This document shows, one piece after another, positions 8,203 to 8,336 of a stretch of 12,534 nt of DNA. Position 1 is the stretch's first letter, and every line of letters starts with the position of its first letter. The notes beneath the pieces were generated by a model. That model saw nothing but the letters and a program-made list of their open reading frames with translations. It made no database searches and was not told the origin of the DNA. A program made the translations under genes and the position numbers. The stretch comes from Escherichia coli (lineage in GTDB: Bacteria; Pseudomonadota; Gammaproteobacteria; Enterobacterales; Enterobacteriaceae): the NCBI RefSeq assembly GCF_003334355.1, contig NZ_QOWP01000053.1; one strand, written 5' to 3'.

Positions 8203-8336
8203 ATGAGCGTCGCATCTGGCACTATTGGCGGATGCGGCGTAAACGCCTTATCCGCCCTACGCGTTAAAGAGCCGGTTTGTAGGCCTGATAAGACGCACTA
8301 GCGTCGCATCAGGCATTGTGCTCCATTGGCGGACGC
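8203..8336. repeat. REP/BIME cluster (at least two REP units in inverted orientation) between convergent mntH and ypeC
   Basis: GGCGGATGCGGCGTAAACGCCTTATCCGCCCTAC (8227..8260) and TGTAGGCCTGATAAGACGCACTAGCGTCGCATCAGGCA (8278..8315) are typical enterobacterial REP palindromes. A partial REP-like GCGTCGCATCTGGC lies at 8207..8220. Confidence 0.85.

Follow-up and report, generated by a model that had tools for sequence, protein, structure and literature searches.

The 140-nt gap between the convergent genes mntH and ypeC of Escherichia coli is a BIME-2-like cluster of E. coli REPs, with truncated half-units at both ends. Taken jointly with the role proposed for it here, i.e. that after Rho termination the mntH and ypeC mRNAs have their 3' ends set and protected by the REP hairpins, this reading has a probability of about 90% in our estimation. 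The cluster is of a type already known, in the most thoroughly studied of bacterial genomes, and adds nothing new in kind. The locus does, within one species group, illustrate the dynamics of BIMEs, including erosion to half-units, a 40-nt deletion between direct repeats and insertion of IS1397 into a REP loop.

REP units in the mntH-ypeC gap and their affiliation

The window, i.e. the whole 12,534-nt stretch of DNA that was analysed, is a segment of a K-12-like E. coli chromosome. The mntH stop codon (TAG, 8196-8198) and that of ypeC (TAA, 8341-8339) delimit a gap at 8199-8338, which corresponds to 2,511,328-2,511,467 in MG1655, and the BIME lies within the 3' untranslated regions of both genes. 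A first-pass annotation had proposed that a REP/BIME cluster fills this gap at 8203-8336, which is essentially its whole length; this proved right, as did the gene names, which agree with the ORF list and with annotation. The gap is REP-derived almost throughout, and many E. coli genomes match a 251-nt query across it at 100% identity, their flanking genes being annotated as mntH and ypeC. The features are as follows.

6960-8198, plus strand: mntH CDS, Nramp Mn2+/H+ symporter (ORF list; annotation at E. coli loci with the same or nearly the same sequence)
8206-8221, plus strand: half-REP, Z2 head half, AGCGTCGCATCTGGCA, without the tail half and without GTAG
8222-8225, no strand: head-to-head linker between half-Z2 and Y, CTAT, 4 nt (sequence; alignment A2)
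8226-8260, minus strand: complete Y-type REP, minus-strand sequence GTAGGGCGGATAAGGCGTTTACGCCGCATCCGCCA (pattern match, Rfam naRNA4 alignment, fold)
8261-8278, no strand: tail-to-tail linker between Y and Z2, 18 nt, GCGTTAAAGAGCCGGTTT
8279-8315, plus strand: complete Z2-type REP, GTAGGCCTGATAAGACGCACTAGCGTCGCATCAGGCA (pattern match, REPtron layout, Rfam naRNA4, IS1397 junctions)
8316-8326, no strand: head-to-head linker, 11 nt, TTGTGCTCCAT (alignment A2, REPtron sequences)
8327-8337, minus strand: probable half-REP, Y head, TGGCGGACGCG compared with TGGCGGATGCG at 8226-8236 (direct repeat D1)
8339-8665, minus strand: ypeC CDS, DUF2502 protein (ORF list; annotation; Pfam DUF2502)

Read on the minus strand, the order is thus half-Y, 11-nt linker, Z2, 18-nt linker, Y, 4-nt linker and half-Z2.

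The two complete units were identified with IUPAC patterns built from the E. coli K-12 REP sequences in Table 1 of Nunvar 2010 (PMC2817692). Each pattern has one match in the 12.5 kb (Y, 8226-8260, minus strand, 2 mismatches; Z, 8279-8315, plus strand, 1 mismatch), and neither matches any of 200 dinucleotide-preserving shuffles of the window. The earlier annotation had posited at least two inverted REP palindromes within 8203-8336, a claim to be judged by alignment to the REP Y and Z consensus; both palindromes, which lie tail to tail, match at the level of the one to two mismatches just given. Compared by eye with the consensus GCCGGATGCGGCGTGAACGCCTTATCCGGCCTACGA as given in PMC12306157, the Y unit is identical at 32 of 36 positions, and two of the four differences from that version of the consensus are complementary changes at paired stem positions. 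REPs carry a conserved GTAG at the base of the palindrome, and their stem is interrupted by a mismatch or bulge (PMC3333891). In the gap GTAG is present at 8279-8282 on the plus strand and, as CTAC at 8257-8260, on the minus strand, and both folded hairpins carry internal unpaired stem positions. A repeat search, independent of the patterns, returned each palindrome (I2 and I3) together with an arm-to-arm inverted repeat (I1). In its 37-nt layout the Z unit agrees with the z2 iREP of the REPtron (B268 in PMC3333891) and with the sucB-sucC Z2 unit, its assignment as Z2, as opposed to Z1, resting on comparison with loci that are termed Z2 in the literature.

The half-units differ in how securely they can be assigned. 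The half-Z2 is identical at 15 of 16 positions (94%) to the head half of the complete Z2 unit (8300-8315; direct repeat D4), aligns with the 5' half of the sucB-sucC Z2 iREP, and falls within the second Rfam naRNA4 alignment. The element at 8327-8337, which adjoins the ypeC stop codon and varies among strains, is probably a half-Y REP, judging from its collinearity with the 3' half of Y (alignment A2) and its position within the first naRNA4 alignment; it is short and is the least certain part of the cluster. One complete Y/Z2 pair with truncated ends is most simply regarded as the eroded remnant of a longer array. Pairing of 8359-8365 with the half-Y in the Rfam alignment prompted the idea that the C-terminus of YpeC is itself a decayed Y REP. 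This idea was rejected, as the Pfam DUF2502 match spans residues 23-106/108, reaching the end of the model, so that the YpeC tail is part of the conserved family.

Assignment of the gap to REPs accounts, as the first-pass annotation had suggested for what it regarded as a routine cluster, both for structured non-coding DNA and for spurious open reading frames. The mechanical ORFs that enter the gap (8257-8616, 8015-8215 and 8025-8222 on the minus strand, 8318-8572 and 8326-8577 on the plus strand) have no gene annotation in any genome inspected, and there is reason for caution in that no genes, small RNAs or terminators should be called there. The gap is presumably already annotated as a REP element in EcoCyc/GenBank. 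The RefSeq record NC_000913.3 carries no REP features, even at the known BIME-2 of sucB-sucC, so their absence from that record at mntH-ypeC is uninformative. Neither mntH nor ypeC is mentioned in the RepRanger supplement or has an entry in the text of the gyrase Topo-Seq supplement.

With respect to family, a 97-nt core (8222-8318) has matches at 37-40 or more sites in each of the 5426 complete E. coli genomes, with at least 40 pieces in 5425 records, and is thus a member of a high-copy family, of which the mntH-ypeC copy is extragenic, between two stop codons. The whole gap is collinear with the BIME-2 arrays at the rayT (yafM) REPtron of MG1655 and at sucB-sucC (alignment A2). The BIMEs flanking rayT consist of y REP and z2 iREP (Ton-Hoang et al. 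2011, PMC3333891), and the sucB-sucC element was named BIME-2 by Sutormin et al. 2019 (PMC6379681). Like the mntH-ypeC cluster, these arrays combine Y and Z2 units in alternating orientation and are intergenic, at the 3' ends of genes. The spacings are likewise similar: the right head-to-head linker (8316-8326) is 11 nt and resembles those of 12 nt in the REPtron BIME-2, and the linkers arranged tail to tail are 18 nt and 17 nt, respectively, both beginning with AAAC. By contrast with the tandem BIME-2 arrays, the gap has a single complete pair with half-units at both ends, its left head-to-head linker is only 4 nt, and its tail-to-tail linker is locus-specific in sequence. Under strict application of the published classification, the cluster may be an 'atypical' BIME or a remnant.

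A single inverted REP pair at the 3' end of transcription units is also the arrangement of BIME-1/RIP-RIB elements. These, however, combine Y with Z1 and have a long L linker with an IHF site, whereas the mntH-ypeC cluster has an 18-nt linker and a Z2-type unit. The IHF consensus WATCAANNNNTTR is absent from 8199-8338, also when 1 mismatch is allowed. Together with the 18-nt linker, which is not the L motif, this indicates that the cluster is not a BIME-1/RIP and that binding of IHF, of which the first-pass annotation made generic mention, should not be assumed; the generic expectation is hence corrected for this BIME.

At gathering thresholds, Rfam detects tRNAs only in the whole window and no RNA family in the gap. 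A permissive search gives two minus-strand matches to naRNA4 (RF02564), with scores of 50.9 bits (E = 1.8e-8) and 48.7 bits (E = 5.5e-8), each of which aligns one complete hairpin (Z2 in one match, Y in the other) with high posterior probability; the complete tail-to-tail Y/Z2 pair scores 29.9 bits. None of the three values reaches the naRNA4 gathering score of 59.5 bits. The naRNA4 model was built on a REP325 unit of the composition Y-linker-Z2 (Qian et al. 2015, PMC4550694), and the scores are sub-threshold because the gap has no intact head-to-head Y-Z2 unit. REP325 shares its Y and Z2 hairpin units with the mntH-ypeC gap and differs in having an intact 77-nt head-to-head Y-linker-Z2 in a six-fold tandem array, neither of which is present in the gap.

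Variation of the cluster

The same architecture is present at the orthologous locus in 7 diverse strains (90-100% identity), and a 651-nt query is covered contiguously in 5320 of 5426 genomes (about 98%). Among the 7 strains, which represent different E. coli phylogroups, pairing holds in 99.4% of alignment cells of the Y and Z2 hairpins, and 21 of their 24 pairs are invariant. The variation that does occur converts G-C to G-U on the plus strand only, with zero double-sided compensatory changes, so covariation argues neither for nor against selection on RNA structure. The flanking half-units and the linkers vary more than the coding flanks in the same strains.

Within the inner Y stem (8236-8247), two C-to-T changes are found in three phylogroup-divergent strains (alignment A1, columns 57/69 and 60/66). 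These leave G-U pairs on the mntH-sense RNA and would give A-C mismatches on the ypeC-sense RNA, in few sequences.

When one genome per bacterial species was scanned for its exact sequence, the 18-nt tail-to-tail linker gave a single match, at the orthologous locus of Escherichia sp. MOD1-EC7003. Given one occurrence in one representative genome, and that at the orthologous locus, the possibility that this linker is a multi-copy motif was rejected.

Two types of rearrangement affect the Z2 unit. In NZ_LR778152.1, the IS3-family element IS1397 splits the locus in the Z2 loop (8297-8300), after window position 8300 (L008 4351-5785), with GCTA duplicated on both sides. The junction is 100% identical in 4 genomes, and at least 80% of the junction query is covered in 40. 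IS1397 is specific for E. coli REPs, as shown experimentally according to references given in PMC1525189, and its presence in the Z2 loop is thus independent evidence for in vivo recognition of this palindrome as a REP. In the cryptic-clade strain Escherichia sp. MOD1-EC7003 (gap at L012 8646-8760), 40 nt are missing between two GACGC direct repeats. With this deletion the Z2 head half is lost together with the linker and the half-Y, so that only the tail half of Z2 is left by the ypeC stop codon, a natural example of how half-REPs arise. The MOD1-EC7003 lineage shows that an intact Z2 hairpin is dispensable there, and the deletion, together with the tolerated IS1397 insertions, implies that the intact structure is not essential.

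Roles at the 3' ends of mntH and ypeC

The whole gap folds better than its shuffles on both strands (z = -3.8 for plus and -4.6 for minus; 0 of 200 shuffles as good). The Y hairpin has predicted energies of -21.3 kcal/mol on the plus RNA and -20.9 kcal/mol on the minus RNA, the corresponding values for Z2 being -21.1 and -22.1 kcal/mol. On the plus RNA, an alternative hairpin at 8207-8240, which begins 8 nt past the mntH stop codon, pairs the half-Z2 with the left arm of Y. At -23.3 kcal/mol, as against -21.3 kcal/mol for Y, it is the minimum free energy structure of the plus-strand 3' untranslated region and competes with the Y hairpin; the centroid structure favours the two canonical REP hairpins over it.

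Capping of the two mRNAs by these hairpins of about -21 kcal/mol, against 3' exonucleases, would be the most likely role of the cluster. In the proposed mechanism, the mntH and ypeC transcripts would both run into the cluster, there being no intrinsic terminator, and Rho would end transcription further downstream, within the RNA antisense to the opposite gene, which is untranslated, rich in C and poor in G. Exonucleases acting 3' to 5' would then trim the transcripts back to the REP hairpins, such that Y and Z2 would fix the stable 3' ends of both mRNAs; as DNA, the cluster would be a member of a family that is mobilised and rearranged by the RAYT/TnpA-REP transposase. The classic work on REP-stabilised 3' ends is that on malE-malF.

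Base composition is consistent with this mechanism. GC skew on the plus strand is -0.21 to -0.27 at 8350-8549 and +0.2 to +0.46 at 8000-8199, so that the read-through RNA on either side of the BIME would be C-rich and G-poor. RNA of this composition is that which Rho prefers. Rho-terminated E. coli transcripts are trimmed by PNPase/RNase II to stable stem-loops without U tracts, 24% of which are annotated REPs (Dar & Sorek 2018, PMC6061677), and stable 3' stem-loops are reported to be near-universal for E. coli mRNAs (PMC6061677). The mntH-ypeC locus resembles those cases in having a stem-loop without a U tract after the gene, and a C-rich, G-poor sequence beyond the stem-loop is common to both. 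For mntH and ypeC we infer both the location of the 3' ends at the REP hairpins and the dependence on Rho.

Gyrase binding and mRNA stabilisation are literature properties of the REP/BIME family and are here carried over to the locus. The cluster may be a weak gyrase or HU/cruciform site; gyrase binding, as a BIME-2 property, and HU/naRNA cruciform contacts are possible and would be less likely for a single pair.

Among other explanations, it is unlikely, though by no means to be neglected, that the cluster is what remains of DNA mobilised by RAYT, selfish or neutral and without host function, and persists since its loss is rare and harmless. The truncated half-units at both ends do resemble decay, the deletion in MOD1-EC7003 removes half of Z2, IS1397 in the Z2 loop is tolerated in up to 40 genomes, compensatory changes are absent, and the half-units and linkers are more variable than the coding flanks. 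Such a view is less easily reconciled with the almost invariant complete hairpins (pairing and contiguity values as given above), or with the fact that neither mntH nor ypeC has another 3' stem-loop, though such structures are reported to be near-universal in E. coli (PMC6061677). Neutral persistence and 3'-end capping are compatible as to the origin of the cluster and differ only as to its present function. Intrinsic (Rho-independent) termination of both convergent genes by the cluster, acting in either direction, would fit the presence, on both strands, of GC-rich hairpins of about -21 kcal/mol directly after the two genes, but is very improbable indeed, as none of the hairpins, on whichever strand, leads into a T/U run (0 sites in 7900-8800 versus 1.1 expected by chance).

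Two further proposals assign a more specific activity to the RNA. The hairpin at 8207-8240 might throttle MntH synthesis, with ribosomes stalling at the stop codon and tmRNA being recruited. Its rank as the lowest-energy structure of the plus-strand 3' untranslated region, retention of the half-Z2/Y-arm pairing in 97.9% of cells across the 7 strains, and the rule, as cited in PMC12306157, that REPs less than 16 nt from a stop codon lower translation, are in favour; the proposal is improbable, given that this hairpin is not a canonical REP, competes with Y and is disfavoured in the centroid, and that the complete REPs are at 28 nt from the mntH stop codon and at 23 nt from that of ypeC, i.e. 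outside the 15-nt rule. Since neither complete REP is within 15 nt of a stop, the documented translational control by REPs is not obviously applicable here. A related, still more tenuous model is that the half-Z2 is not inert and that the mntH 3' untranslated region has two states, which would tune MntH output: in one, the stop-proximal hairpin could stall the terminating ribosome or engage tmRNA, and in the other, the canonical Y and Z2 hairpins would shield the mRNA end. It is also doubtful, to a degree only slightly greater than for throttling, that the cluster is a source of nucleoid-associated naRNA4-like RNA or an HU-bridged cruciform contact in chromosome condensation. According to Qian et al. 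(PMC4550694), most REPs are transcribed and HU and naRNA4 connect cruciform-forming REPs, and the two naRNA4 matches, albeit sub-threshold, are highly significant (E ~1e-8). Each, however, covers one complete hairpin only and falls short of the gathering score, the complete pair is arranged tail to tail, with its low score of 29.9 bits and without an intact head-to-head Y-linker-Z2, and a scan found no promoter-like site in the gap.

Other features of the window

The gene order of the window is valU/valX tRNAs, gltX, yfeCD, tRNA-Ala, pdeA, nupC, mntH, ypeC, yfeO, glk and fryB/fryC, the nearer neighbours of the gap being located as follows.

5422-6663, minus strand: nupC
8780-10036, minus strand: yfeO
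10240-11205, plus strand: glk

The small protein gene ypeD (b4819, 29 codons), located by transferring its MG1655 coordinates, is at 6890-6979 on the plus strand, just upstream of mntH and overlapping its start by 20 nt; it is absent from the ORF list, which comprises frames of at least 40 aa. There is a single tRNA-Ala(GGC) gene at 2899-2974 (plus strand), as compared with tandem alaX-alaW in MG1655. As the segment 2899-2979 can be aligned to either of the two MG1655 genes, recombination between these identical tRNA genes, with loss of 115 bp, is implied. IS186C, which in MG1655 is located between nupC and pdeA, is absent, its flanks joining directly with 100% identity (~5390-5401). The last 122 bases of the window (12413-12534) are an IS3 terminal sequence that interrupts fryC, and among 5426 complete E. 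coli genomes only that of strain PSS-12 (NZ_AP027697.1) has the exact fryC/IS3 junction.

The sequence to the left of 5401 is 100% identical to K-12. Over 7 kb, 15 of the 24 mismatches to MG1655 fall within about 430 bp of nupC (5851-6277), and 6 more are at 6727-7115; this distribution suggests that a short tract was introduced by recombination into a K-12-like background.
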